Shown piece after piece: positions 13,712 through 45,774 of a DNA stretch of 64,000 nucleotides. The DNA lies in NCBI GenBank assembly GCA_964602715.1, contig CAZRSB010000004.1, positions 1,109 through 65,108 of the forward strand, given 5' to 3'. Each line of letters opens with the position of its first letter. Within the stretch, counting starts at the first letter, position 1. The notes below the pieces were generated by a model that was given only the letters and a program-made list of their open reading frames with translations, made no database searches and had not been told where the DNA came from. The position numbers and the translations under genes were made by a program. This DNA is from an uncultured Thermoplasmata archaeon. Its GTDB lineage: Archaea > Thermoplasmatota > Thermoplasmata > Halarchaeoplasmatales > Halarchaeoplasmataceae.

Positions 13712-16246
13712 TCAATTAGCCAACAATCTTTCACACCGTTTTTTCCAAAGATCCATACCTCTTTTTTGAAAGTGACTAGATGCCTCTTTGATCAATTCTT
13801 GATTTTGCTCATCACCCTTATTTTTCAAAACTTGACCTAAATCAAATAAAGAAATCGCTTTTTGATCAAAAGATTCTGTTTTTTCAAATATATCTATAGA
13901 TTGTTCCAAAAGATTCTTAGCTTTTTCTAAATTTTTATTTTCCCTTTCGATCAAACCATTTAGATGTTTTACAAGTCCTGTATCTCTTTCTATATCTCGT
14001 TTTGTAATCAGGAATCTTAGATCGCCAAGACGATCATTAGCCTTATCTATATTTCCTTCATGCACTTCTAGTTTCCCCATTAGATACTCCTGCTCTATTT
14101 TAACCTGCAGGCACCCTATTTGATCTAAAATACTTTTACTCTCATCAAGAGTTATTCGGGCTTTATCGAATTCCTCCATCTCAATATAGATATCACCTTT
14201 ATTCGTGAGAAGTTGGCTTTCTTCAAATCTATTCCCTACTTTTTGAGATAATTTTAATCCTTTGTTTATCTGATCTAATGATTTTTCAAGTTCACCTTTC
14301 TTTTTGTATACTACTCCTAGGTTGTTCAAAATTTGTGCCTGTTTTGATTTGTATCCCATCTGGTCATAGGCATCTAAACACTCGTTATAAATCTCGATAG
14401 CCTTCTCTAAATTACCATTGAGACTATATACACTAGCTAAATTATTCATAGTTGCTGAGAGTTCTCTCATGTCTTCAATTTCTTCTCTTAGTTTTCTAGC
14501 TTTTTCTAAATTTTTTATCGAGTCTTCAAAATCCCTCAATGCAAAGGCTGCACTACCTATATTATGAAGAGATTGAGCTAAAAACACTTTGTCCCCGATG
14601 TCTTCTGCGATTCTTTTGCTCATCTTGAAAGCCTTATAAGCCTCTTCAAGATGACCGATCTTCATCAACGACCATCCCTTTTTACCCAATAGTTTACCTT
14701 GATCTAAAGTACCCTCATCTTCTAGTGAAAGTCTATTATTTATCAATTCAAGTGCCTTTTCATACTCCCCTTGCTCCTGGAGTGTAGTGATTATCTCGAT
14801 ATAAACCCTCTGTTCGTACTCAAAGTCTTCCACAAGAGGAATGGCCTTTTGCAAGATCCCTCGACTTTCTTCAAAGTTCCCTAAGATCCTATGAGTATCA
14901 GCCATATCTTTTAGGATCTCAAGTTTTCTTATTTTATCAATATCTCTATCAAAGTTAGAAAGGATATCTAAAACTATATCATATATCTGAAGTGCATCCT
15001 CATGTGCAAATGATATCCTAGCATTCTCAGCGGCTTTTAAATAATATTCCATAGCTTTTTCATAATCTTCCCCACTTAGATAATGCTCAGCTAGAGAAAC
15101 ATATGGTTTTTCAAGCTCATCATTATTGATTTTTTCTATTGTCTCTGCTACTCTAAGGTGTAACCTTTGTCTTTCTGCCCATTTTCCTATTCCTTCATAA
15201 ACTGTCTTCCTTATTGTTTCATGGGAAAAATAAAGATATTCTTCATACTCACATTCTTCCCAAAGGTTGCTTTCAATCAAATCATCCACATGATCGAGAA
15301 TTTCTAGCTCCTCCAGTTCGGAAGAGTTGGCTAATAGAGGAAAAAATATCTTATCACCTATAACACTCCCCAATTGGATCAAAGACCTCGCTTCTTTTGA
15401 AAGACGAGATATCCTTTGTTTAATAACATCTTGGAGCAGGTCTGGTATTATGAACTCATCTTCATCTGGAAATTTTCCTTCCCAAGGAGATATAAGACCT
15501 TGCTCCAACATATTCCTCAAACTGATTCTGATAAATAAGGGATTACCTTTGGTCTTTTTTTGAAGTAATTTTAAAAATTTTTCTGGTATGTTTTTACATC
15601 CCAGCAATCTTTGTACCATCTTTTTACTATTTTTAAAAGAAAAAGGTTGCAGTTTGATATCTATATATAGATCCTTCCTGGACATTTGATTTTTCATGTT
15701 GGTAAACTCGTCTCCAGGGATTACATCTCCAGGTCTATACGTGCCTATAAATAATGAGGCATGATCACTTAAACGATCGGAAAGATAATGAAATAAATTC
15801 AAGGTACCCCTATCGGCATCGTGCATATCTTCGATGATAAATACGTGAGGAACTTTTTCAATATCTTTTTTTAAAACTTCCGCTGTTTCATAAAAAGCGG
15901 CATTCTTATGAGCCTCTAACATATCTCTATCTTTCAGCTCAATGTCCTGTAAATTTTCTATCTGAGTTAACGTAGGAAGAGATTCTTTTTTACCAGAGGT
16001 CCAAGCCTCTCTAATGGGAAGATACGGTTTATTTATTCCACTGACACAACGACCTTCCATGATCTTAAAATCTCTATTTTTTCCCTCATTTTTAATCTGC
16101 CTAATAAAAGTCGTTTTGCCTACACCAGGTTCACCCTGGATAAATACTGTTTTACCATCTCCTTTTTCTAAATTATCAAGTAAATCTCTCATCTTTTCAA
16201 GATTTTTTTCACGGTTTACAAGAATATTAGTTGTTCGTTTATTCAT
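13712..16246 (-). CDS. STAND-class P-loop NTPase with C-terminal TPR array, no N-terminal effector domain
   Basis: Walker A GEPGVGKTT, Walker B VFIIEDMH, GTYRP, GNPLF, HETIRKTVY, then multiple TPRs. Confidence 0.88.
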   Translation of the reverse strand: MNKRTTNILVNREKNLEKMRDLLDNLEKGDGKTVFIQGEPGVGKTTFIRQIKNEGKNRDFKIMEGRCVSGINKPYLPIREAWTSGKKESLPTLTQIENLQDIELKDRDMLEAHKNAAFYETAEVLKKDIEKVPHVFIIEDMHDADRGTLNLFHYLSDRLSDHASLFIGTYRPGDVIPGDEFTNMKNQMSRKDLYIDIKLQPFSFKNSKKMVQRLLGCKNIPEKFLKLLQKKTKGNPLFIRISLRNMLEQGLISPWEGKFPDEDEFIIPDLLQDVIKQRISRLSKEARSLIQLGSVIGDKIFFPLLANSSELEELEILDHVDDLIESNLWEECEYEEYLYFSHETIRKTVYEGIGKWAERQRLHLRVAETIEKINNDELEKPYVSLAEHYLSGEDYEKAMEYYLKAAENARISFAHEDALQIYDIVLDILSNFDRDIDKIRKLEILKDMADTHRILGNFEESRGILQKAIPLVEDFEYEQRVYIEIITTLQEQGEYEKALELINNRLSLEDEGTLDQGKLLGKKGWSLMKIGHLEEAYKAFKMSKRIAEDIGDKVFLAQSLHNIGSAAFALRDFEDSIKNLEKARKLREEIEDMRELSATMNNLASVYSLNGNLEKAIEIYNECLDAYDQMGYKSKQAQILNNLGVVYKKKGELEKSLDQINKGLKLSQKVGNRFEESQLLTNKGDIYIEMEEFDKARITLDESKSILDQIGCLQVKIEQEYLMGKLEVHEGNIDKANDRLGDLRFLITKRDIERDTGLVKHLNGLIERENKNLEKAKNLLEQSIDIFEKTESFDQKAISLFDLGQVLKNKGDEQNQELIKEASSHFQKRGMDLWKKRCERLLAN

Positions 16247-16288: not shown

Positions 16289-19200
16289 TCAATCAAACTC
16301 GTCTATCTTCGTTTTTGCTTTCTGAATCCAGTGCTTCATTCCCTTCTCTTTGAACATCTCAAGGGCATCTTTAAGATAACTAAAGGATTCTTCGATATCC
16401 TCTTTTTCAAGGTACAGGACACCGATCTCAAAAAGGGTCACAGGATACTCGATAGGATCAACTCCCTTTAATAAATCTTCAGATCTGAATAGCTCTTTTT
16501 CGGCCTTTTCATATCTCTCTTTATTCCGATATAATTTGCCGCTCACTCTTCTACATATACCCTCTATAAGGTTATTTTCCACTTCTTGAGATAATTCTAT
16601 CGCTTCATTCATCTTTTCTTCAGCTCGATCGATGTTTCCTCGAAGCAAGTCTATCTCAGCGATAGAAGACAAAGTTGAAGCTACTTCAGCTTCTTCTGCA
16701 ACGTTTTCATAAAGCCGTTTAGCTTCTTGAAACTTTTCTAAAGCCTTATCTAACTGACCATCTAATAGTAGTACTTTTCCAAGCCCTTCAAGAGCCCAAG
16801 CAGTTCTAAATTTTACATTAGCACCCCTATATATTTCTAGGGCATCTTGATGATGTTCTAATGCTGTTTCTAATTCACCCATTTTCCGATAGGCTATGGC
16901 CATATTATTCAAACATCTAGCGATACCATTTTGACTGCCTACTTTCTCTTCAATAGATTTTGACTTTTGAAAATGATCTAAACCCTTTTTAAATTCGCCT
17001 CTATCTCTGTATATATCTCCTAAATTATTGTGAGCTGTAGCCATCCCTATTATATCTCTTCTCATCTCACAGTTCTCTAAACCTTCTTTGAAATACTCTT
17101 CAGCTTCGTCAAATTCACTTTGATACATCTTAACTAAACCTAAATTATTCAAAGAAGATATCAACCTTTCATCTTCATCTAGATCTTTCCAGATGTCTAT
17201 AGCTTTCTTAAAATGTTTAGTTGCTTCTTCCATTTCTCCTAGATGATATTTTAAGGAACCAAAATCATGATGTGAACCTGCGATCAATTTTTTGTCATCG
17301 ATTTTAAATGCCAATTGTTTCTCTTTTTCAAAAAGCTCCTCAGCATTATCGAGATCTCCTCTCTGTAGAGTAGACCATGCTTTTTGACCTAACAATTTAC
17401 AGACCTCGCTTGAATATTGCTCCTTTTCTTCTTCTGAATCGACTAGTTCCAACCCCTTTTCTACTATATCTATAGTTTTGTCTAGTTCTCTCTTCTCCCA
17501 ATGTGAGTTAGATATCTTTCGATAAATTCTTAGCTCTGTCTCTTTCTCTATCTCTTTTTCTAAAATTGAGCGATAAGTTTCATTTGATTTTTCATACTCC
17601 CCGATTAACTTATACGTATCTCCTAAGCTCTCTAAAATATCTATAACCTGTTTATCATCGGATTGTTTCGCCATTTTTAAAGCCCTTTTATACATCTCAA
17701 TTGCATCTTTCTGGGCAAAACTTTTTTTGGCATTTTCGCTTGCTTTGAGGTAATAATCCAAAGCCTGGTCTATATTTTGTGCTTTCTCATGATGTCTGCC
17801 TAGATCTGAATACCACTCTTCCAATTCATGGTCATATAGCTTCTCTATATTGTTAGCTACTCTCTTATGAAGAAGTTTCTTTTTCAACCTCTTGATATCT
17901 TTGTAAACAGTTTGCTTTATTAGCTCATGAGAAAAGTAAAATTTCTCCCCTTCTGTATCCTCATCCCACAATTGGTTACCCATCAGCATGTCTATATGAT
18001 CTAAAAGATCTATCTCGTCTAGGTCCATCGTTTTAGCAAGAAGATCAAAAGGTATCGGATCACCTATCACGCTGCCAATCTCTACCACCTTCACAGTTTC
18101 ATCATCCAATCGGTTCACTCTTCTTTCAATTACGTTGTGAACCATCTCTGAGACAGAGATGTCACTTTCATCACTAGGATACAGATCCTTTTTAGGATCT
18201 AGAATTTTCTCTTCGAGCATCTGCCTCAAACTCTCCTTTATGAAGAGCGGATTACCCTCTGTTTTTTCATGGATCCTTTCAATAAAATAATCCGGGACTT
18301 CTTCAGTACCTAAAAAACACTTAATGGTTTCTTCAGTATCTTCATATCTTAAAGGTTCGAGTTTGATCTTTTTTGATTTTCTTTTTCTAGTCAATCTATT
18401 CATCATCTCTATTAAATGATGATCTTCAGAGACATCTTCGGGTCGATAGGCTCCTATAAATAAAACTGGATCCCCATCCAATTTATCGTTCATATAGGCT
18501 AAGATATCCAATGTTGCTTCATCTACCCACTGGAGATCATCCAAAAATACAACTAATGGTTTTTTTTCGGCGATCTCTTTTATGTACTTCGTGGTTTCAT
18601 AGAAAGTCTCTTTCTTCTTAGCATCGAATAATCTTTTATCCTGAATACTCTCTTCATCCTTGCCAGGACCTATGAACGCCATTCCAGCTGTTTCTTGTTT
18701 TCTTGTCATACCTTCTATAAACTCACTAAAAGCTTCCTTAAAAGGAAGATAAGGATCAGATAGCTCACTTTGACAAGTACCCATCAAAAATTCAAATCCT
18801 AACTCCTGAGCGAAGGGCTTCAATTTAGATACAAGGGAAGTTTTTCCTATCCCAGCTTCGCCCTCTATGAAGATCGTTTTTCCACCCTCTTGTTTGACTT
18901 CTTTGAGATTCTCATTAAGTTCTATCTGCTCTTCTTTCCTACCTACAAATACTTCTATATCATTCTCTAATTCTTTAAGATTTATAATACCTTCTTCATC
19001 GATAGTGCTCAAACCTTTAACTATAGGATTTCTCCCACCGATATGATTATTAATCTTTTTAACGGGCATCTCTTTTTCTCCATCCTCAGTCAACAATGTC
19101 ACATACTCTTCTTTTATCGATTTCCAAAATTCGGTCTCGCTCTGTTTACCTTTTTTTGTCAGAAAATAAACATTTCTCTTTTTATCTGAATTTATAACAA

Positions 19201-19393
19201 ATCTTATATCTTCCTCTATTAGTCCCTCTTCTTTTATCTCTTTCAGAGTGTTATAAGGTGCGCGTTCGGTTATACCTACTGCTTCCGCTATACCTCTTGG
19301 CGTTATACAATAAGGCACCTCATCTTCATCCTTATATTCATCATATCCCTGCAGATATGTCAATACCATATCTTTTTCGCTAATTTCAAGCAT
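16289..19393 (-). CDS. wHTH + STAND NTPase + TPR protein
   Basis: N-terminal HTH (ITPRGIAEAVGITERAPYNTLKEIKEEGLI...YFLTKKG), VGRKEE, GEAGIGKTS, VVFLDDLQWVD, GAYRP, GNPLF, more than 10 TPRs. Confidence 0.9.
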   Translation of the reverse strand: MLEISEKDMVLTYLQGYDEYKDEDEVPYCITPRGIAEAVGITERAPYNTLKEIKEEGLIEEDIRFVINSDKKRNVYFLTKKGKQSETEFWKSIKEEYVTLLTEDGEKEMPVKKINNHIGGRNPIVKGLSTIDEEGIINLKELENDIEVFVGRKEEQIELNENLKEVKQEGGKTIFIEGEAGIGKTSLVSKLKPFAQELGFEFLMGTCQSELSDPYLPFKEAFSEFIEGMTRKQETAGMAFIGPGKDEESIQDKRLFDAKKKETFYETTKYIKEIAEKKPLVVFLDDLQWVDEATLDILAYMNDKLDGDPVLFIGAYRPEDVSEDHHLIEMMNRLTRKRKSKKIKLEPLRYEDTEETIKCFLGTEEVPDYFIERIHEKTEGNPLFIKESLRQMLEEKILDPKKDLYPSDESDISVSEMVHNVIERRVNRLDDETVKVVEIGSVIGDPIPFDLLAKTMDLDEIDLLDHIDMLMGNQLWDEDTEGEKFYFSHELIKQTVYKDIKRLKKKLLHKRVANNIEKLYDHELEEWYSDLGRHHEKAQNIDQALDYYLKASENAKKSFAQKDAIEMYKRALKMAKQSDDKQVIDILESLGDTYKLIGEYEKSNETYRSILEKEIEKETELRIYRKISNSHWEKRELDKTIDIVEKGLELVDSEEEKEQYSSEVCKLLGQKAWSTLQRGDLDNAEELFEKEKQLAFKIDDKKLIAGSHHDFGSLKYHLGEMEEATKHFKKAIDIWKDLDEDERLISSLNNLGLVKMYQSEFDEAEEYFKEGLENCEMRRDIIGMATAHNNLGDIYRDRGEFKKGLDHFQKSKSIEEKVGSQNGIARCLNNMAIAYRKMGELETALEHHQDALEIYRGANVKFRTAWALEGLGKVLLLDGQLDKALEKFQEAKRLYENVAEEAEVASTLSSIAEIDLLRGNIDRAEEKMNEAIELSQEVENNLIEGICRRVSGKLYRNKERYEKAEKELFRSEDLLKGVDPIEYPVTLFEIGVLYLEKEDIEESFSYLKDALEMFKEKGMKHWIQKAKTKIDEFD

Positions 19394-19538
19394 CAACGAG
19401 TATATCAAGACAATACTTATTAATTTTTAGGTAATATTCTTATAGTTTTAAGTAGCCACATCATAGTAGATATTGTCATTATTCCTGTTTCTTTCGACGG
19501 TGATAACCTTTTTAAACTATGAAAAAATACTGATGTTG

Positions 19539-34080: not shown

Positions 34081-34391
34081 CGTTTACAGTTATTACAAAA
34101 GAATTAAATTAGTTTTCCCCCTAATTCCAAATGATCACAAACTATCGATAAAACTATGATTCCTAGCTCCTATTATGCTTAATATAATACTTTTTATGGT
34201 TGAATATCTGAATTTTTAAATTAAAGAATTGAATGATATCAGCAATCAAATTCCCGATATCTTAGGAAAAGTCCACTTTACAAAATGAAAGTTACGAGCT
34301 CCATTATTATTTAGTGAAAGAAACAAAAAGGTAAACCTTGCTGAGATGTAAGGGAAATTAATTTAATATAGTAGTATAGTATGTAACTAGG

Positions 34392-37300
34392 ATGAATATG
34401 GATAAAGACAGTCACTTGAAACCTCAAGCACTCGAAAAAGAGATACTCTCGTTTTGGAATTCTAAAAATATAGACGAGGAATTGAGTGAGTATATTAGAG
34501 GAGGAAAAAACCATTATCTAGTCCGGCCTCCCAGTTCCATTCGAGATCAACTTACTTGGAAAGACATATATAAAAATATAATTTACGACGTCTGGGCACG
34601 GTATTGGTGTCTCAAAAACTATAACGTAAGGAATGGTTTTGGATTTGATCCTTCTACGCTTAGGATCGAGCGGATGTCTATAAAATCTGAAAGATCGAGA
34701 TGTCTTTCTTATCTTTCGAAGAAAGAACTCTCTGAGTTAGAAGAAAAAATAAAATCTAATTCTGAGGAATTATTGGATGAACTTAATGATAAATATAGGA
34801 AAATAGGGCTATGGAAAACGGGAGAATTCGATTATAAAGTCAGTGATGAACTATTTATAGATTCATGTTTTTGGACCTTGAAAAAGCTCGTGGGAGAAGG
34901 AGTGGTCGCCAAGAAAAAAAGACCCATCAAATGGTGCCCAAATTGTAAGGCTCCTATCACAAAGTCAGAGATGTCATTGGAAAGAGAGGTAAAACAGAGT
35001 TTATTAGTAAAGGTACCACTATCTAGCGGTAAAGATCGATACTTTTTAACAGAGGTAAAGGATTTATGGAAAATACCCGCGAGTACCTCGTTGATGGTCG
35101 ATACGGATGAGGAATACTTTATCTTAAAATATGACAAAGGAGAAGAAGAGGACGTAGAACAATTAGTGCTTATCAAAGATAGAGCCGAAGAGCTGATGGA
35201 AAAATATGGTATCGATGACTACTCAATATTGAAGTCTGTTTCGGGGGAAAAATTAGAAGGTCTAGCTTATAGAGACCCTCTTCATGATAAATTATCTGGT
35301 AAGAAGAAAGTGCTGAATGGAGGTAACCGTGTTATTGCTTCAAAAGCCGTACGCGATGGAGGAACAGGACTTGATTTTTTAATTCCGTACGAGAATCGTC
35401 ATTGGGAAATAATCAAAGATAAAAAAATAAAATATTATGACCCATTACTTGAAAACGGATATTTTGAAGGAGGTCCAAAAAATAATGAGTATTCTGGACT
35501 ATCATTTATTCAAGCTGAATCACTTATATTTGATCATCTTTTGAACAAAGGTTTAGTTCTCGAAAAAAAAGAAATTAAGACTGAATCAAAGAGATGTGAG
35601 TCATGTAAGAGCCGCATAATAGATTTTCCGAAAAGAGAGTATTTTATAGATGCAGAAAACATGGATGATAGTATTTTACAAAAAATCAAGACTCATTCCA
35701 GCGGAATTTCTCTAGAGGACGATATTGAGTTTAAGGACTTTTTAATATCTAGAAGGTCACATTGGGGTATACCATTTCCTGCCTGGGAGTGCGAATGTGG
35801 AAATCGCTTTTTTCCAGAAAATATAGAAGAGCTAATTGAAAGATCAAACATGGATGATGTTGAAAGTTCGAGCTATAGTGATTTCACAAATATGAAAGTG
35901 TATTGCCCAATGTGCGAAAAAGAAATGGAATGGGAAAAAAGATCATTTACCCCTACATTTTTAGAAGGGTGCTCTCCCTGGGCACAGCTGGGTTATCCTC
36001 AAGAAGAAAAAGAGTATCAAACCTGGTGGCCAGGAAAATTATTTTATGATTATAACTTAGAAAAAGACGATTTATCATCATTGAATATGGTGATCTCAGG
36101 TATAATTTTCGATGAAACTACCATCGAATATCAATTCGATCTCGGACCCATGATCGAGGAAATAGAATATGGCCGAGTTAAAGATCTAGTTGCAAAACAA
36201 GGTTATGATTCTATGAGAGTAAATTTACTAGCAAATGATCCTCCATCAGAACCAATGTATATCGAAGGCAAAGACTTTCAACATATTGAACCTCTCGTTA
36301 AAGTGAGTCTGAACTTATTAAAATTCTTAAAAGAAAACTTAAACAAAAACGAAAAGACACAAGAAGATCTTGAATCTTACAATCTAGCTAACCTGAAATC
36401 AGTTGAAGACCTATGGATACTCTCTAAAACAGAGCGGTTAAAAGGAGAGATCAAAAAGGACTATGAAAAAGGAAGATTCGATAAAGTTATCAAAAATTTA
36501 AAAGAACTGATCGTTGAGGATTTTGGTCAATGGTACGTTAAATTGGCTAGAGATCGACTCCAAGATGAAGACGTCTTACCTATATTATCACTGACGAATC
36601 ATATCCTTAAAAATTTCGCCATAATGACTTCACCTATCGCACCTTATTTGGCAGAGAAACTATATAAGGAGCTGGATGGAAAAGAAATTAGTGTTTTCAT
36701 CGAAGATTGGCCAAAATCTAATGAAGATTATCGTGAGGATACACTTGAAAAAGAGATGATATCTGTCAAAGAGATAGTTTCAAAAATAATATCTTCCAAA
36801 AGAGAATCAGAACTACCTATAAAATGGCCTCTAAAAGAAGTTGTTTATGAAGCTAAAACCTCTAAAGGTGAAAAATTAATAGAAAGATTCGAAAGAGTGA
36901 TCGAAGAAAAAGCAAAACTAAAAAACATTAGAAAACTAAAAGAAGAAGAAGAATGGGAAGAGGCGATATTAAAAGTAAAACCAGATAGAGAAGAGATCGG
37001 TAAATCATATCCTTCTTGGGAGAGTAAGATAGCAACTATGCTCGAGAATAAGTCTCCAGAATCAGTAAAAGAAGGAATAGAGAATGGAGATTTTACCATA
37101 GGGCTACAAGGACAGATGATTGAGATCGATGAGGACATGGTAACTTTCGAGAAGGAGATGCCAGAAGGATATGCTGAGATCGTTCTTGAAGATCTGAATA
37201 TCTATATTGATCTTAGTATATCCGAAGAGATTTGGCTGGATGAGATGGTAAAGGAGATCAAACTTCGAATTAAAAGCATGAGGAAAGACCTGAATCTGGA

Positions 37301-38396
37301 AGAAGGAGACGAATTAATTATTTATATATCATGTTCTGACGAAATCGAAGAAAGATTGAATGATCAAAAAGATCAAATCAAGAAAGAAGTAGGAGGAAGA
37401 AAAATATTAGTTGTTGTAGATGAAGAAGAGATGGAGGAAGCAAAATACATCCTCGAATGGGAAATAAACGATGAGATCATCCTCATCGGGGTCAAACCTC
37501 TATATAAAACTAAAGTTGTAGAATATTATTCTAATATATCAGGAGTGGATGATGAAACCGCCGAAGCGTTGTATGAGGCAGGTTACACATCTATTGACCA
37601 ATTGAAGAAAGCTGAAGCTTCCCAACTTTCAGATATCGAAGAGATTAAAAGAAGTCTTGCTAGGAAGATAGTGAACTCGTTATCAGATGAAGAACAAGAT
37701 GAACTCGAGGAAAAAGAAGACGAATTGGAAAAAATAAAGGAAGATGCTTCAGAAAAAGCTTCAGAAAAGGGGGAATACAGAGAGGAAGTGAGTGATGAAG
37801 AAAGTGATGTGGAATCAAAAGAAAAAGACGAAGAAAAAAAAGAAACCGTAGAAAAAGAGGATGAAACATCTGAAGAAGATATTGAAGAAGAACACGAAAA
37901 AGACGAAAAAGAGGATATAGACGATACTGAGCTCCCAGAACATATCTCTAAAAGTTCTACATATTTACTAATGGATAAACGATCGAACAGTTCTTTCAAG
38001 CTATTTAGAAAAATAATAGAATCTGGGGAGAGAGGATTTTGTGTCTCGAGAGATTATCCTGATAAAGTTAAAGATGAATATAATCTTCACGATGTTGAGA
38101 TGATATGGTTATCTAATGTCGATAGGGAAGATGTCATAAGACCAAAGAGTTTGGAAAAGCTAAGTTTAGCACTAGAAAATTTTCTGACTAAAACTGGAGG
38201 AGTGATAATGTTGAATGGATTAGAATATCTCATAACTAACAACGACTTTAAAACCGTACTTCATCTCATCCAATCGATAAAAGATCAGGTAGCCATTAAT
38301 GAATCCATTTTATTGATACCTGTAAATCCTTCAGCTATGAACGAAAATCATATCGATCTCATAAGCGGTGAAGTAGATGAGTTAATCGAAAATTAA
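34392..38396 (+). CDS. Degenerate isoleucyl-tRNA synthetase-like protein fused to HhH, acidic linker and DUF835
   Basis: IleRS scaffold (EKEILSFW, WCPNCKAPI, DFLISRRSHWGIP, PWAQLGYP, DLWILS, WYVKLARDR, SVFIEDWP, IKWPL) without HIGH or KMSKS. HhH at about 37523-37685; DUF835 (CVSRDYP, IWLSN, LNGLEYLITNNDF) at about 37929-38393. Confidence 0.85.
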   Translation: MNMDKDSHLKPQALEKEILSFWNSKNIDEELSEYIRGGKNHYLVRPPSSIRDQLTWKDIYKNIIYDVWARYWCLKNYNVRNGFGFDPSTLRIERMSIKSERSRCLSYLSKKELSELEEKIKSNSEELLDELNDKYRKIGLWKTGEFDYKVSDELFIDSCFWTLKKLVGEGVVAKKKRPIKWCPNCKAPITKSEMSLEREVKQSLLVKVPLSSGKDRYFLTEVKDLWKIPASTSLMVDTDEEYFILKYDKGEEEDVEQLVLIKDRAEELMEKYGIDDYSILKSVSGEKLEGLAYRDPLHDKLSGKKKVLNGGNRVIASKAVRDGGTGLDFLIPYENRHWEIIKDKKIKYYDPLLENGYFEGGPKNNEYSGLSFIQAESLIFDHLLNKGLVLEKKEIKTESKRCESCKSRIIDFPKREYFIDAENMDDSILQKIKTHSSGISLEDDIEFKDFLISRRSHWGIPFPAWECECGNRFFPENIEELIERSNMDDVESSSYSDFTNMKVYCPMCEKEMEWEKRSFTPTFLEGCSPWAQLGYPQEEKEYQTWWPGKLFYDYNLEKDDLSSLNMVISGIIFDETTIEYQFDLGPMIEEIEYGRVKDLVAKQGYDSMRVNLLANDPPSEPMYIEGKDFQHIEPLVKVSLNLLKFLKENLNKNEKTQEDLESYNLANLKSVEDLWILSKTERLKGEIKKDYEKGRFDKVIKNLKELIVEDFGQWYVKLARDRLQDEDVLPILSLTNHILKNFAIMTSPIAPYLAEKLYKELDGKEISVFIEDWPKSNEDYREDTLEKEMISVKEIVSKIISSKRESELPIKWPLKEVVYEAKTSKGEKLIERFERVIEEKAKLKNIRKLKEEEEWEEAILKVKPDREEIGKSYPSWESKIATMLENKSPESVKEGIENGDFTIGLQGQMIEIDEDMVTFEKEMPEGYAEIVLEDLNIYIDLSISEEIWLDEMVKEIKLRIKSMRKDLNLEEGDELIIYISCSDEIEERLNDQKDQIKKEVGGRKILVVVDEEEMEEAKYILEWEINDEIILIGVKPLYKTKVVEYYSNISGVDDETAEALYEAGYTSIDQLKKAEASQLSDIEEIKRSLARKIVNSLSDEEQDELEEKEDELEKIKEDASEKASEKGEYREEVSDEESDVESKEKDEEKKETVEKEDETSEEDIEEEHEKDEKEDIDDTELPEHISKSSTYLLMDKRSNSSFKLFRKIIESGERGFCVSRDYPDKVKDEYNLHDVEMIWLSNVDREDVIRPKSLEKLSLALENFLTKTGGVIMLNGLEYLITNNDFKTVLHLIQSIKDQVAINESILLIPVNPSAMNENHIDLISGEVDELIEN

Positions 38397-38428
38397 GATT
38401 ACTTGTATTCAACTTTGGAGGTTTATTT

Positions 38429-39331
38429 TTGAAGATCGGCATCGTAGGCCCGGGAGCTATAGGATCCTTTCTTGCATGTTTATTGAGTGATGAAAACGAA
38501 GTTGATCTTATAGGTAAAGTGGATCGAGATATCAATGAGATAAAAGTGATAGGAGAATCTTATACAAGCGGTAAAGTAAATTACTCAGATGATCCCTCTC
38601 AATTGATCGAAGATGATATAATCATTATAGCCACAAAATCTTTTGATACAAGAAGCGCTATGTCCTTTATTGAAGACTATATCTCCAATAAATCAATCAT
38701 CCTAACTCTACAAAATGGGCTGAATAATGAAGAAATAATATCAGAATTTGTCGGAGAAAAGAGAACTATCGGCGGGATAACTAGTCATGGAGTTACTTTT
38801 ATAAAACCGGGTACTGTCAAACATGCAGGTGAAGGTGACACAATTATAGGTGCCTATCCAAAAGGAAATAATAAAAAAGTGGAAAAAGTTTCTAAAATTT
38901 TTAACAGATCGGGACTAAAAACTGATATTAGCAATAATATCTTAAGGAATATTTGGGAAAAAGGAATCATTAACTCCGCAATCAACCCGATCACTGCTCT
39001 TTCTGGGATAAAAAATGGAACACTTCTCGACAATGATAATCTTAGGGATCTGATGAATATAACTGTAAACGAAAGTTGTGAGGTCGGAAAAAAATATGTA
39101 GACCTCTCAAATTCTAAAATGATAAAAAAAACTAGTGAAGTAGCTTCTAAAACCTCTGAAAATATTTCTAGTATGTTACAAGATATAAAAAACGAAAAAA
39201 AAACAGAGATTGAACAGATTAATGGAGCTATCATAAAAAAAGGCAAAAACAAGGGTATTGAAACTAAAGTAAACAGGGTTCTATTCAACCTAATAAAATT
39301 TAAGGAAAATGAATACCTTCAAGACTTTTAA
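38429..39331 (+). CDS. panE: Ketopantoate reductase
   Basis: GPGAIG, ATKSFD, LQNGL, WEKGIINSAINP, SSMLQD, TEIEQING; TTG start. Confidence 0.92.
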   Translation: MKIGIVGPGAIGSFLACLLSDENEVDLIGKVDRDINEIKVIGESYTSGKVNYSDDPSQLIEDDIIIIATKSFDTRSAMSFIEDYISNKSIILTLQNGLNNEEIISEFVGEKRTIGGITSHGVTFIKPGTVKHAGEGDTIIGAYPKGNNKKVEKVSKIFNRSGLKTDISNNILRNIWEKGIINSAINPITALSGIKNGTLLDNDNLRDLMNITVNESCEVGKKYVDLSNSKMIKKTSEVASKTSENISSMLQDIKNEKKTEIEQINGAIIKKGKNKGIETKVNRVLFNLIKFKENEYLQDF

Positions 39332-42119: not shown

Positions 42120-45086
42120 ATGATAAAAAAACGCCTCTTCCTTATGTGGATAATCTTTATCCTGCTTTTCGCTTCATTTGGTGTTCTGACTTTTCCAACT
42201 AATAGTGAAACCACAGAAGAGATAAGTATCTATAACAAGAATCTAGAAGAGGACTACGATCAGGTCAATCCTTTTGAAAAACCACATTCTTGGACTGAAG
42301 ATCATGGAGTCACTTTTAAAGAATCGATATCTAGGAACACCTCTGTAGATATGGATGAAAGAGGACGTTTCGATGTAGTGTGGGAAGATAATAGAACAGA
42401 TGATTTTAACATATTTTATGTGAAATTGTGTGAAACAGATGGTGAAAAGTTGATCAATGACTTTAGGATAACCGACAATGAAAACCCCTCTTTGGACCCT
42501 AAAGTTTTTTCCCTGCAAGAAGAATATGTTGTGATAATTTGGCAAGAATATGATGGAGAGGATTGGTCCTTTTATTTTTCGAAGATTGAATACTCAGATA
42601 GAGAGGTTAGAAATATTATAGAAAGAAGGAAGATAACATCCTTAGGAAACAATGGTCCTGTAAACTATACTTTTGAGCAAGATGAATCAGACGAGTCTGT
42701 ATTCCATCTGGTATATGAAAATAAAGAGATAGGGGACTTATACTATAAGCAAATAAATGATGTAGGTCAAATACTCGTTGAAGAAAGATTGACTGCAACT
42801 GAGAAGAATTCCTATTCTCCAAAAATAGAGATCACTAAAGATAACGAGATGCACCTTTTTTGGCTCGAACCGATAGAAAAGGTCAACGGTGTTCTTTATG
42901 ATGGCATATTTTATGGGAAAATTGAAGATCTAGACTTTCCTGAGGAGATCCCCTTTGACCAGAACGATAGTAGAAGAATAACTGTTGTAAAAATGCTAGA
43001 AAGGTACGAAATCACTTTAGATGAGGAAGACAACATCCACATGATATTTGACGACGATAGATATGATCAATATAAAAAGGATATAATCTATAGAAAAATG
43101 TATTCAGATGGTACTACCTCCATTGATGATAGATTGATCACCCCTAGAGAAGACATGAATAACTCATTCCGACCATCAATAGCGACTGCAGTCGATGGTA
43201 ATATTTCATTAGTTTGGGCAGATAGCCGTGACTATGAAGCTATAGGAGAGGAAACAAAAAATCTTACGGAGAAGCCACATGACATATACTTCCAAAAACT
43301 CGATACAGAGGGTAATGAACTGAGGCCAGCTCAGAGAGTCACTGGAGTAAAATCGGTCGCATTAGATCCGATCATTATTAATGACGAGAAAAATAATCAC
43401 CATATCTTTTGGGAAGATACAAGGAGAGAATACATGGATATCTTTTACCAAAGGACCCACAAACCATCACTTTCTATAGAAGAGATGAGAGTAAATCCTG
43501 AAAAGCCAGTGTATAATTCCACTGTAGATGTTGAAATTGACTTAAAAAATGAGGGAGGAAGTTCTATTGATACCATAGGAACACTTTATTTACAAAGAGG
43601 TCACCAAGATAGATGTAAGCTACACAACGAAGAAATTCTTTTGGAGAGAAACTTTTCGATAAAAGAGGGAAGCAGGAAAACACTAGAGTTGAATTTCACG
43701 GCATTGAGCGCTGGTCATCAAAATTTAATCTTTAAAGCTAATGAAGATAGAGATGTACTTGAAGAAAATTATGATAGAAATTGCGCATTTGAAAATATTA
43801 CTGTTTTGCCAGATTTAGAAGTTGAGCTGCATGAGTTTGAACGAGTTGTAGATGCAGGTCAAAAGACCAATTTTACCTATGAATTGAACAATCTTGTTGA
43901 TATAGAACAAAACATTACGGTGGATTTAGAAGCTCCTAGTGGAGTTGAAATAAAAGATCATTCTCTAGAAACAAGGGAAATGCATATTTTTAGTTTTGAA
44001 AATGGAGATTATCAGGAACACCTTGAGGAAAAAAATGAAACTAAATTAAAAGAGATATTTGTAAAAGAAAATTATCCCTTGGATGATTTTGAAATAGTTG
44101 CGGAGGAAGATAAGGAAGATAAATGGTCTATAATTTCAGAAGGTGTAGAGAAATACAGCATTATAAAAGAGAACGAAAAACTGAACGTCTACAAGGAAAT
44201 AGTTAGATTAGGGCCTGAAGAATCACAAAATCATCGATTTGAGGTGGTACCAGATGAAAAATTACGAGCTGAGGAATACAAAATTAACATGAATGTGGAA
44301 TCAATAGATATAAAAAGATTGGCATCGGACGAACAGGATCTCGAATCTCATTTTGAAAGAGAATTTATCCTTCAGATAAATCCATTTTACGATCTTTCTT
44401 TTGAGATAAGAGAAGATAATTATGACAGAAGAGAAGATGGTGTCTATATTATAGAAGACCTAGAAGATTTAAACTATATGGTACAGATGAAGATCGAAAA
44501 CAGAGGAAATGTTGAACATAACATCAGCATAGAAGATAACAGAAATGAAACAGAAGTACATTGGGGACTTTTTACCGGAACGACCAGTATAGAACCTTTT
44601 GAAACTGGATTTTCTTTTCTATTTAGGACTTTCGACGAGGATTTTATAGAGGCTGTAGAAACCACTACAGTAGATGAGGACTTTACAGAAATATTCGAAG
44701 AAGAGTTGAGATCGATAAGTAATATACCGGATGACTATGAAATTGGAGATGATGTTGAATTTTACGAAAGGGATGGTGAAATATTCTTAAAAGAAAATGG
44801 TAAAGAATATTTATTGAAAGTGAGAGAACAAGAAATCGAAGTGTATACACATCCCACCTTGGACCTAACTAATCTAGAAGGTATAGAAGAAGACTTCGAG
44901 TTAAATGTCACGGCCGAATCATGGGATGAAATAGACCTAGAAGAAACTTTAACCGTTAGAGTTAAAGGGGAAGAACCGGTCAGTTTTTGGAGAAGAATAC
45001 CCTGGATGTGGATCATCCTGATACCTGTGATTGTCTTTATTGGCCTTATAGTGGTCGGTAGAATCTATTACACTTTTATTGCTTGA
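42120..45086 (+). CDS. Large surface protein: signal peptide, beta-propeller-like repeats, CARDB/Ig-like domains with two inserted modules, C-terminal TM anchor
   Basis: Repeats VVWED-x-R...IFY-x-K; CARDB pattern PSLSIEEMRVNP...LKNEGG...EENYDRN; C-terminal WIILIPVIVFIGLIVVG. Confidence 0.8.
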   Translation: MIKKRLFLMWIIFILLFASFGVLTFPTNSETTEEISIYNKNLEEDYDQVNPFEKPHSWTEDHGVTFKESISRNTSVDMDERGRFDVVWEDNRTDDFNIFYVKLCETDGEKLINDFRITDNENPSLDPKVFSLQEEYVVIIWQEYDGEDWSFYFSKIEYSDREVRNIIERRKITSLGNNGPVNYTFEQDESDESVFHLVYENKEIGDLYYKQINDVGQILVEERLTATEKNSYSPKIEITKDNEMHLFWLEPIEKVNGVLYDGIFYGKIEDLDFPEEIPFDQNDSRRITVVKMLERYEITLDEEDNIHMIFDDDRYDQYKKDIIYRKMYSDGTTSIDDRLITPREDMNNSFRPSIATAVDGNISLVWADSRDYEAIGEETKNLTEKPHDIYFQKLDTEGNELRPAQRVTGVKSVALDPIIINDEKNNHHIFWEDTRREYMDIFYQRTHKPSLSIEEMRVNPEKPVYNSTVDVEIDLKNEGGSSIDTIGTLYLQRGHQDRCKLHNEEILLERNFSIKEGSRKTLELNFTALSAGHQNLIFKANEDRDVLEENYDRNCAFENITVLPDLEVELHEFERVVDAGQKTNFTYELNNLVDIEQNITVDLEAPSGVEIKDHSLETREMHIFSFENGDYQEHLEEKNETKLKEIFVKENYPLDDFEIVAEEDKEDKWSIISEGVEKYSIIKENEKLNVYKEIVRLGPEESQNHRFEVVPDEKLRAEEYKINMNVESIDIKRLASDEQDLESHFEREFILQINPFYDLSFEIREDNYDRREDGVYIIEDLEDLNYMVQMKIENRGNVEHNISIEDNRNETEVHWGLFTGTTSIEPFETGFSFLFRTFDEDFIEAVETTTVDEDFTEIFEEELRSISNIPDDYEIGDDVEFYERDGEIFLKENGKEYLLKVREQEIEVYTHPTLDLTNLEGIEEDFELNVTAESWDEIDLEETLTVRVKGEEPVSFWRRIPWMWIILIPVIVFIGLIVVGRIYYTFIA

Positions 45087-45192: not shown

Positions 45193-45774
45193 TTATGATA
45201 GAGGTAAGATATCTCTATTGTAAACCGTTGGTGTGTAGAATGATTCTAAGATCGTTGTTCCGTGTTTTGGAGTGAAGTGTAGTTCTAGTTCAGATTGTGG
45301 ACCGAGTTCAAACTCTTCTACATTGATGGTCAACTGAATTGTACTTCCAGGTTCTATTATTGGATTAGTGTCTGGATCGAACTCATCATGAGGATCCAAT
45401 AGCGCTTCAGCAGTGTAATCTCCGTATTCTAAAGTTTCTTCTTCCTCTCTTGAAACCACCTGTATCAGCGTAAAATCTAGGTTTTGTGGGGGACTACCGG
45501 GACCTATCCCTAGATTAACCTTTAGTTCGTCTATATCAGTTCTGTCTTCATCTGCTTCCCCATAGATTGACCGAACATTCAAATATGTGGCTACTTCCTC
45601 CACAGATTGTTCTGCTGTAGCCTCGGCTTGTTGTTTCAGTAAAGTAACTGTTCTTAGAAAAACACCAGCTGATACTGCAGCCACTAAGATTATGGCTATA
45701 AATATTATGAGGGTTCCCACACCCATCATTGCTTCTTGGTTTTCTTCTGTAGGTCTTCTATTAAGTCGTTTCAT
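45193..45774 (-). CDS. flaB: Archaellin (archaeal flagellin)
   Basis: Class III signal peptide QEA|MMGVGTLIIFIAIILVAAVSAGV, LKQQAEATA, PGSPPQNLD, LHFTPKHG. Confidence 0.9.
   Translation of the reverse strand: MKRLNRRPTEENQEAMMGVGTLIIFIAIILVAAVSAGVFLRTVTLLKQQAEATAEQSVEEVATYLNVRSIYGEADEDRTDIDELKVNLGIGPGSPPQNLDFTLIQVVSREEEETLEYGDYTAEALLDPHDEFDPDTNPIIEPGSTIQLTINVEEFELGPQSELELHFTPKHGTTILESFYTPTVYNRDILPLS

Follow-up and report, generated by a model that had tools for sequence, protein, structure and literature searches.

Gene and Domain Architecture

The stretch of DNA analyzed here, 64,000 nucleotides of contig CAZRSB010000004.1 from an uncultured Thermoplasmata archaeon (GenBank assembly GCA_964602715.1; hereafter the window), carries a gene of 1334 codons whose product is an apparently noncatalytic homolog of isoleucyl-tRNA synthetase (IleRS) that continues into a helix-hairpin-helix (HhH) domain, an acidic linker and a C-terminal DUF835 domain, and which is followed directly by a gene for ketopantoate reductase (KPR, panE; table 1). 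Public gene calls start the open reading frame (ORF) at the second ATG (34398), two codons downstream of the first at 34392. The same protein, 100% identical, is present in three independent assemblies (an ENA assembly, a Logan assembly and a 73.7-kb contig), and the gene is therefore not an assembly artifact.

Pfam profiles cover most of the protein, comprising tRNA-synt_1 at residues 18–549 (only profile positions 2–330 of 414 being matched), Anticodon_1 at residues 673–817 (E 1.7e-27), the IleRS C-terminal domain DUF5915 at residues 845–1034, HHH_5 at residues 1047–1099 (E 3e-9), and DUF835 (PF05763) at residues 1196–1325 with 106 bits against a cutoff of 33 over profile positions 3–133 of 136. 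The equivalog models are matched poorly: NCBIfam TIGR00392 (ileS) gives 279 bits, below its cutoff of 621, and the MupA and MupB models give 145 and 119 bits, respectively, against cutoffs of 1900. The top sequence match in the Protein Data Bank (PDB) is the type-2 IleRS of Priestia megaterium (residues 59–988), and homology to IleRS is far beyond chance both by sequence (E 8e-54) and by fold (E 8e-67).

Table 1. Coordinates of the IleRS-like gene, its mapped features and the adjoining panE gene within the window
Feature	Position	Strand	Remarks
TATA-box-like element TTTAATATA	34362–34370	+	22–30 nt 5' of ATG; read from sequence; possible archaeal promoter
Whole ORF	34392–38396	+	1334 aa; IleRS homolog, HhH, linker, DUF835
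Degenerate HIGH position, RPPSSIRDQLTWKD	34524–34565	+	Residues 45–58; alignment to active IleRS
GFDPSTLRIE for G(F/Y)DMHGLPIE	34641–34670	+	Asp kept, HGLP lost
Zn knuckle 1, WCPNCKA	34932–34952	+	Retained; C182 and C185 conserved in dead and active proteins
CP1 editing-domain homolog	34962–35576	+	Motifs degenerate; region folded in AlphaFold2 model
Zn knuckle 2, CESCKS	35595–35612	+	Retained
FLISRRSHWGIPFPAWECECG, ISR..WGIP.P.W motif and Zn knuckle 3	35739–35801	+	Retained
Zn knuckle 4, CPMCEK	35904–35921	+	Retained
NLEKDDLSS for DQTRGWFYS (amino-acid/adenylate pocket)	36054–36080	+	Lost
Site of deleted KMSKS loop, GPMIEEIEYGRVKD	36144–36185	+	Gap of 6–9 residues in every dead-clade sequence
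Anticodon-binding helical domain	36408–36842	+	Retained; Anticodon_1; 42% mean dead-clade identity
IleRS C-terminal (tRNA-binding) domain homolog	36924–37493	+	DUF5915; fold kept, strongly acidified
HhH, like the RadA N-terminus	37515–37688	+	HHH_5; NCBIfam RadA N-terminus positions 8–61; pLDDT ~94
Acidic linker, predicted disordered	37701–37955	+	85 aa, 43 D/E
DUF835, inactivated KaiC/RecA fold	37977–38366	+	No Walker A; near-invariant motifs
GGAGG, Shine-Dalgarno-like site	38419–38423	+	In 32-nt gap 5' of panE; read from sequence
Ketopantoate reductase PanE/ApbA	38429–39331	+	Directly 3' of dead gene; TIGR00745 and 5ayv matches

Loss of Catalytic and Editing Motifs

Motif positions were taken from an alignment of the window protein to active archaeal IleRS and their coordinates located exactly. 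The HIGH signature is absent, the segment aligned to GPPYTTGxIHxGTAWNK (RPPSSIRDQLTWKD) containing no histidine. HGLP is lost as well (DPSTLRIE where DMHGLPIE stands in active IleRS), as is the pocket motif DQTRGWFYS, replaced by NLEKDDLSS. Within the editing domain (connective peptide 1, CP1) the Thr-rich motif WTTTPWTLP reads EVKDLWKIP (35052–35078), and TGxVHxAPGHG, the GTGxVH editing motif, reads GTGLDFLIP (35361–35387). The KMSKS loop is deleted, GPMIEEIEYGRVKD standing at the GxxMSKSxGN position with 6–9 residues gone.

These losses are shared by a group of 26 sequences, here called the dead clade, from Thermoplasmatota of soda and salt lakes (21 species genomes). The group comprises the window protein, P0002–P0005 and 21 further loci (L015–L035), and each member has lost every one of these motifs; the KMSKS deletion is found in 26/26. 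The losses are strongly concentrated in one half of the synthetase. At 130 positions a residue that is at least 95% conserved in active IleRS is lost in the dead clade. Of these, the catalytic and editing half holds 102, compared with just 22 for the anticodon-binding and C-terminal domains together. Conversely, 25 positions are conserved specifically in the dead clade, and 16 of these, including several lysines, fall in the latter two domains. The window protein retains ISRRSHWGIPFPAW and all eight cysteines of both zinc sites (C182, C185, C402, C405, C467, C469, C505, and C508). Judged by this pattern, the protein cannot plausibly activate isoleucine or edit; we know of no class I synthetase that adenylates without HIGH, KMSKS, and the pocket elements.

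Structure of the Body and Tail

The synthetase body keeps its fold. An AlphaFold2 model of residues 3–1036 has a predicted local distance difference test (pLDDT) of 87 and a predicted template modeling score (pTM) of 0.81, and Foldseek matches it to a type-2 IleRS (8c8v) over 1070 columns, the C-terminal tRNA-binding domain included, and also to the yeast IleRS–tRNA-Ile complex. The C-terminal domain is strongly acidified, with a net charge of –13 per 100 residues compared with –3.7 in active fusions and –2.9 in the other proteins of the window.

A second model, of residues 1034–1334, comprises the HhH domain (pLDDT ~94), the disordered acidic linker and DUF835 (pLDDT ~97). Structural matches of DUF835 are FlaH/ArlH (4yds, E 6e-7), PH0284, and KaiC, indicating a RecA/KaiC fold, and the module of HhH plus core can be aligned with RadA/Rad51 over its entire length. 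A Walker A motif is missing from DUF835: strand beta-1 (STYLLM) is followed by a four-residue loop and then a helix, with no GxxxxGK[ST]. The domain has been described as “iKaiC, inactivated KaiC-like ATPase domain” and serves response regulators of Methanomicrobia and Thermoplasmata as an output domain (PMC5847659). Three of its motifs (WLSNV, IRPKxLEKLSL, and EYLITNNxFxTVLxLxQSxxDQVAxN) are near-invariant in dead and active fusions. We considered and rejected the identification of the tail as RadA/Rad51, which has the same domain order, because Walker A is missing and the protein scores only 23–25 bits with the NCBIfam RadA equivalogs, far below their cutoffs of 259–361.

A first-pass annotation of the window, made from the sequence without database searches, had described an IleRS scaffold with degenerate HIGH, KMSKS, and CP1 motifs, and the alignment bears this out, its coordinates being right within a few bases. 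Its four zinc knuckles, ISR..WGIP motif, and anticodon-binding bundle were likewise recovered, as were the HhH domain, the acidic linker, a complete DUF835, and the RecA/KaiC fold that it had ascribed to DUF835; the profile and structure comparison to IleRS that it had called for returned a full-length fold match and an ileS equivalog score below cutoff.

Phylogeny and Selection in the Dead Clade

Neighbor-joining (NJ) trees recover the dead clade as monophyletic in 30 of 30 bootstraps. One member, the metagenome-assembled genome (MAG) NA-30cm_bin.7 (L017), belongs to GTDB order o__PWKY01, and another, NA-30cm_bin.11 (L023), to genus PWHR01 with a completeness of 97.6%, lineages that have been equated with Candidatus Haloplasmatales and Candidatus Natronoplasma (PMC11287216). 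The closest homologs of the KPR encoded in the window are named “Candidatus Natronoplasma sp.” at NCBI, and other dead-clade members are MAGs from Kulunda soda lakes and the Great Salt Lake. Our initial homology search returned only five dead-clade proteins, that of the window and four relatives, and understates the clade; the E/K/D-rich acidic linker probably dominated the word prefilter of that search, and the KPRs of further dead-clade contigs are present in the same database.

Pairwise identity among the 26 sequences ranges from 29% to 80%, and the window protein is 33–56% identical to the others. All 26 ORFs, 1290–1420 aa in length, are intact; apparent frameshifts in L027 and L034 were rejected, both breaks being runs of 10 Ns. 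The synthetase body has evolved about twice as fast as in catalytically intact fusions of the same architecture (root-to-tip length 0.53 versus 0.25), whereas DUF835 is barely faster (0.26 versus 0.20). Mean identity within the clade is 37–39% in the core, 42% in the anticodon-binding domain, 47.5% in the C-terminal domain, 44% in HhH, and 70.5% in DUF835. The core, the best-conserved part of the body in intact fusions (~64% mean identity), is thus the least conserved in the dead clade, where identity within the body is instead highest in the anticodon-binding and C-terminal domains.

The ratio of nonsynonymous to synonymous substitution rates (dN/dS) comes from a single pair, L019/L023 (dS 0.86–1.39), dS being saturated in the other dead-clade pairs. 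In this pair it is 0.08–0.14 for the whole protein, 0.08–0.14 for the dead Rossmann/CP half, 0.08–0.13 for CP1, and 0.03–0.04 for DUF835; the catalytic half of intact fusions at similar divergence gives 0.07–0.11. Judged from these comparisons, the dead gene is under purifying selection that acts most strongly on the tail but also covers the whole fold, both zinc sites, and the anticodon-binding and C-terminal domains. We reject decay because the ORFs are intact and dN/dS is 0.08–0.14.

Origin from Catalytically Intact Fusions

We scanned species-representative genomes with an alignment of fusion proteins and analyzed the best 80 of 155 relatives, all of which come from Thermoplasmata, Thermoplasmatota, or Methanomassiliicoccales MAGs. 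An IleRS body with a C-terminal DUF835 in one ORF was found in at least 80 species genomes, 21 of them dead and 59 intact; all 59 intact loci (L036–L094) keep HIGH, HGLP, WTTTPWT, TGxVH, DQTRGW, and KMSKS (or QMHKS) in addition to DUF835. A search started from an intact fusion returned more than 100 clusters with the same architecture, and the protein that RefSeq annotates as “isoleucine--tRNA ligase” in the cultured Methanomassiliicoccus luminyensis (WP_019176842.1; 1301 aa, PF05763) is one such fusion. The nearest relatives of the window DUF835 all reside in IleRS fusions (1300–2329 aa, with variable inserts of HhH, tetratricopeptide [TPR], or zinc-ribbon domains), the DUF835 of the fusions forming an IleRS-specific branch. 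Between dead and intact fusions, DUF835 is on average 53% identical, the synthetase body only 24–34%. From the intact-motif loci, the RefSeq annotation, and the IleRS-specific DUF835 relatives, we conclude by sequence comparison that IleRS-(HhH)-DUF835 is a widespread and normally active form of the enzyme, from which the window protein descends as a dead branch.

Two of the earlier proposals are altered by this result. The IleRS-HhH-DUF835 arrangement was to be looked for in related genomes and does recur in the 26 members of the dead clade, but its occurrence in at least 59 species genomes with an intact IleRS means that it is not an invention of the pseudo-enzyme. DUF835 had also been cast as an output coupled to the pseudo-synthetase; since the architecture is inherited from catalytically intact fusions, the domain is not an output added to a dead sensor, and it has no P-loop and no enzymatic output. 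The preference for selection over decay held up, resting on 26 orthologs and the dN/dS of the one usable pair.

Several other fusions depart from the canonical motifs. P0009 (L106:185-5566; NCBI GCA_054043565.1), a 1793-aa IleRS-HhH-DUF835 protein of another lineage, has lost HIGH (SQITLGM) and KMSKS (AMLAKEN), keeps HGIP, WTIYPWT, and ISRQRYWGIPIP, and has no KPR downstream; its motifs suggest that catalysis was lost here a second time, independently and less completely. The idea that P0009 is an intermediate at the base of the dead clade was rejected, as it is found in another MAG without KPR on its 3' side and its sister position in NJ trees may reflect long-branch attraction. In P0006, L069, L075, and L078, HIGH is intact and KMSKS is altered to (S/P/A)LS(E/K)S, with editing or pocket motifs altered too in P0006, L075, and L078 (WTSRPWT or WTSTPWT, EQTAGW); these may be weakened or changing enzymes. 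P0025 (NCBI, 1041 aa), an IleRS-like protein without DUF835, has an odd HIGH region (GPPYAHDTLMTHHLWVG) and no recognizable KMSKS, and may be another pseudo-IleRS outside the DUF835 family. At seven intact loci (L068, L071, L075, L076, L078, L083, and L084) an ORF of ~1900–2000 aa lies directly 5' of the IleRS-DUF835 gene on the same strand (e.g., L075:272-6220, +). The final ~250 aa of these ORFs resemble the IleRS C-terminal domain (window residues ~790–1035, E 1e-15 to 1e-23), and Pfam otherwise identifies only CARDB/Ig-like domains in them.

Genomic Neighborhood

The most consistent feature of the dead loci is the gene that follows. KPR lies directly 3' on the same strand, at a distance of –4 to 57 nt, in 24 of 24 dead loci compared with none of 60 intact loci. 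The panE product of the window scores 258 bits with TIGR00745 (cutoff 141), matches the Thermococcus kodakarensis KPR (5ayv, E 5e-43), and looks catalytically competent. Convergent to panE in 19 of 24 dead loci is a radical-SAM/TRAM gene for a MiaB/MtaB-like tRNA methylthiotransferase (e.g., L003:14826-16052, L012:6389-7600, and L097:7826-9052, all on the minus strand), a place occupied in the window by aIF5A and an M3 oligoendopeptidase. aIF5A, the sole translation-factor gene nearby, also accompanies 10 of the other 23 dead loci, and 17 of 24 dead loci have a Pyr_redox_2 gene. No neighbor family is common to dead and intact loci, and positional orthology between the two is consequently not demonstrable. 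We found no tRNA gene and no Rfam element within the 64-kb window.

Stand-alone proteins of ~525–553 aa with an N-terminal DUF835 are encoded 5–8 kb from the dead gene in three dead-clade genomes (L003:2313-3971, L016:3-1574, and L033:2402-4000, all on the minus strand), one of them with a weak bactofilin match; none is encoded in the window. Elsewhere in the window, two adjacent large ORFs on the minus strand (13712–16246 and 16289–19408) encode paralogs of 844 and 1039 aa that match part of the mid-region of TOMM kinase/cyclase fusions, carry long TPR arrays, and resemble STAND-type NTPase/TPR regulators. A 988-aa protein (42120–45086, +) with faint CARDB and lipoprotein-like matches adjoins an archaellin/flagellin-type gene (45193–45774, –).

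Proposed Function and Alternatives

With a probability that we put at roughly 60%, the window protein is a selected pseudo-synthetase that keeps a noncatalytic, tail-dependent role of an ancestral bifunctional IleRS and now serves as an adaptor. Repurposing for a nonenzymatic job is suggested because the catalytic and proofreading motifs are gone and yet the gene is kept under selection across an order. The ancestral fusion would have had two jobs, aminoacylation and a noncatalytic one dependent on the tail; another IleRS gene would have taken over aminoacylation in this lineage, and the window copy would then have specialized on the second job (subfunctionalization). The HhH and KaiC-like tail may dock on a partner that is itself conserved, the most plausible candidate being a KaiC/RecA-family ATPase assembly, and the IleRS-shaped body could be a binding platform, possibly still for tRNA-Ile. 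The dead gene is presumably co-transcribed with that for KPR, which would probably link its role to the metabolism of pantoate and CoA or of branched-chain keto acids.

This adaptor model calls for a second IleRS, which we assume because IleRS is an essential enzyme and the motif loss is severe. No other ileS was found within the 64-kb window or in ~400 kb of dead-clade loci. Nor did we find a second DUF835-fused IleRS in the dead-clade MAGs, none of the 59 intact loci sharing a whole-genome shotgun prefix with the 21 dead loci, which is weak evidence given that it covers the best 80 of 155 relatives. Many duplications of informational genes and frequent transfers have been noted in Haloplasmatales (bioRxiv 10.1101/2023.07.03.547478), and duplication and transfer are therefore both plausible routes to a replacement.

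Several observations weigh against the adaptor model. The closest plain IleRS matches (P0012, P0013, P0014, P0048, P0022, and P0016) are all in unrelated assemblies, and the neighbors of these genes show no close similarity to proteins of the window or the dead clade. Neither a KaiC-like ATPase nor another DUF835 gene is encoded within the window. The linkage to KPR could partly be inherited synteny because all dead loci come from one order, and no IleRS-like or DUF835 fusion was found among the 120 best KPR homologs. No region of the protein is more acidified than the C-terminal tRNA-binding domain (a shift of –9.4 relative to active fusions), and tRNA binding may be lost for this reason. Finally, dS is near saturation in the sole pair usable for dN/dS.

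Four other explanations have to be weighed, two of which also give the protein a regulatory role. In GCN2 a synthetase-derived, noncatalytic HisRS-like domain is fused to an active kinase, and by analogy the dead body could bind uncharged tRNA-Ile and signal through DUF835 to a downstream effector, as the first-pass annotation had suggested. Consistent with such a sensor, the two domains best kept in the body are those that also hold most of the clade-specific conserved positions, the fold matches tRNA-bound IleRS structures, and DUF835 is an output domain of response regulators in other archaea. We nevertheless consider it unlikely: the C-terminal tRNA-binding domain has become the most acidic part, DUF835 has no P-loop or other catalytic output and no active effector is fused to it, the identical type of tail is found on fully active IleRSs and therefore did not originate as a sensor output, and the window has neither a tRNA gene nor, apart from aIF5A, a linked gene for translation control. 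Pantoate and CoA synthesis branches from the valine precursor 2-ketoisovalerate, and the dead synthetase might alternatively bind and regulate KPR, coupling that synthesis to a branched-chain ligand or to tRNA status. The invariable position of panE, overlapping the dead gene at some loci and never beside an intact fusion, its internal GGAGG, and the seemingly competent KPR all fit such a subunit, for which there is a precedent in HisZ, a dead HisRS paralog that regulates HisG (PMC9437257). However, the Ile/Val pocket (HGLP, DQTRGW) is gone whereas HisZ keeps its histidine site, the 120 best KPR homologs include no Rosetta-stone fusion, the evidence is gene order inside one order-level clade, and the DUF835 tail, the most conserved part of the protein, is left without a role; we regard this explanation as doubtful, a little more so than the sensor.

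The remaining two explanations fare much worse. That the protein is still the working IleRS of the cell, acting through noncanonical motifs, would explain why no other ileS turned up in the window or the ~400 kb of related loci, but the HIGH histidines, KMSKS loop, pocket and editing residues are lost, 102 otherwise invariant positions of the catalytic half in all, the ileS equivalog score is less than half its cutoff, the body has evolved about twice as fast, and it would have to adenylate without elements that no class I synthetase is known to dispense with; we find this highly improbable. A decaying relic or assembly artifact, to which the eroded catalytic motifs and faster-evolving body might point, is scarcely credible in view of the identical protein in three independent assemblies, the 26 divergent orthologs with intact ORFs, the low dN/dS, dead core included, and the confident AlphaFold2 model.

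The adaptor model can be extended further, as a speculation that we think improbable as a whole. Thermoplasmata IleRS may be wired through its KaiC-like tail into KaiC/RecA-type signaling, and Haloplasmatales may have split this role into a dead IleRS-shaped regulator co-expressed with KPR that would link tRNA-Ile or branched-chain status to the synthesis of CoA precursors. If true, this would be an archaeal, class I counterpart of the logic of HisZ and GCN2, with a new kind of output.

Significance and Comparison with Known Systems

The main interest of the finding is that comparing the active with the dead forms allows the function of DUF835/iKaiC to be tested. They provide a before-and-after series in which hundreds of active fusions, one of them in a cultured methanogen, can be set beside a dead clade that spans an order and at least one other lineage in which degeneration is partial. 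By elimination, any function left to the dead protein would be that linked to the tail, which brings the role of DUF835 within reach of experiment. There is also a risk for annotation: the dead proteins fall well below the ileS cutoff yet have IleRS Pfam domains and could be miscounted as ileS when genome completeness is assessed or metabolism reconstructed for Haloplasmatales, and the active fusions carry no annotation beyond that of IleRS.

The closest known proteins are the intact Thermoplasmata fusions (e.g., WP_019176842.1), which are like the window protein in domain order, DUF835 motifs, and common ancestry, but keep all the motifs that it has lost and stand in a different neighborhood without KPR. 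GCN2 resembles it in joining a noncatalytic, synthetase-derived part to another module in one polypeptide; its partner is an active kinase, however, whereas the window protein has an inactivated ATPase fold in that place, and its tRNA binding is putative. The tail has the order of RadA/Rad51, an HhH followed by a RecA-fold core, and is likewise comparable to FlaH/ArlH and PH0284, but differs in the missing Walker A, a core of ~145 aa, an identity of 9–15%, and the 85-aa acidic linker between the two parts.

Among synthetase paralogs, HisZ is the regulatory subunit of the ATP-phosphoribosyltransferase HisG (PMC9437257) and, like the window protein, is a synthetase homolog that has lost adenylation, is maintained by selection, and has a genetic link to an enzyme of biosynthesis (KPR in the case of the window protein). 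In contrast, HisZ belongs to class II, still has its amino-acid site, and binds a demonstrated physical partner, whereas the window protein is class I, has a destroyed pocket and a KaiC-like tail, and its partner is hypothetical. LeuRS-I of Sulfolobaceae and LeuRS2 of haloarchaea are class Ia paralogs that aminoacylate poorly or not at all; their CP1 is disrupted and their C-terminal domain acidic and divergent, yet they are retained and important (PMC9437257). The window protein is also an archaeal class Ia copy with a disrupted CP1 and an acidified C-terminal domain, but LeuRS-I still forms leucyl-adenylate, binds tRNA-Leu, and has no HhH or DUF835, whereas the window protein is without the adenylation motifs. 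IleRS itself has given rise to IleRS2/MupA (mupirocin resistance) and SbzA (Ile transfer in altemicidin biosynthesis) (PMC9437257), which stand beside the housekeeping enzyme and, unlike the window protein, are both catalytically active. A 2022 review of aminoacyl-tRNA synthetase duplications gives only these two for IleRS and no dead IleRS (PMC9437257), and we found no paper linking IleRS with DUF835 or KaiC. HisZ, the HisRS-like domain of GCN2, SLIMP, and LeuRS-I are noncatalytic relatives that show the recruitment of translation enzymes for regulation. Noncatalytic synthetase paralogs as such are already known.

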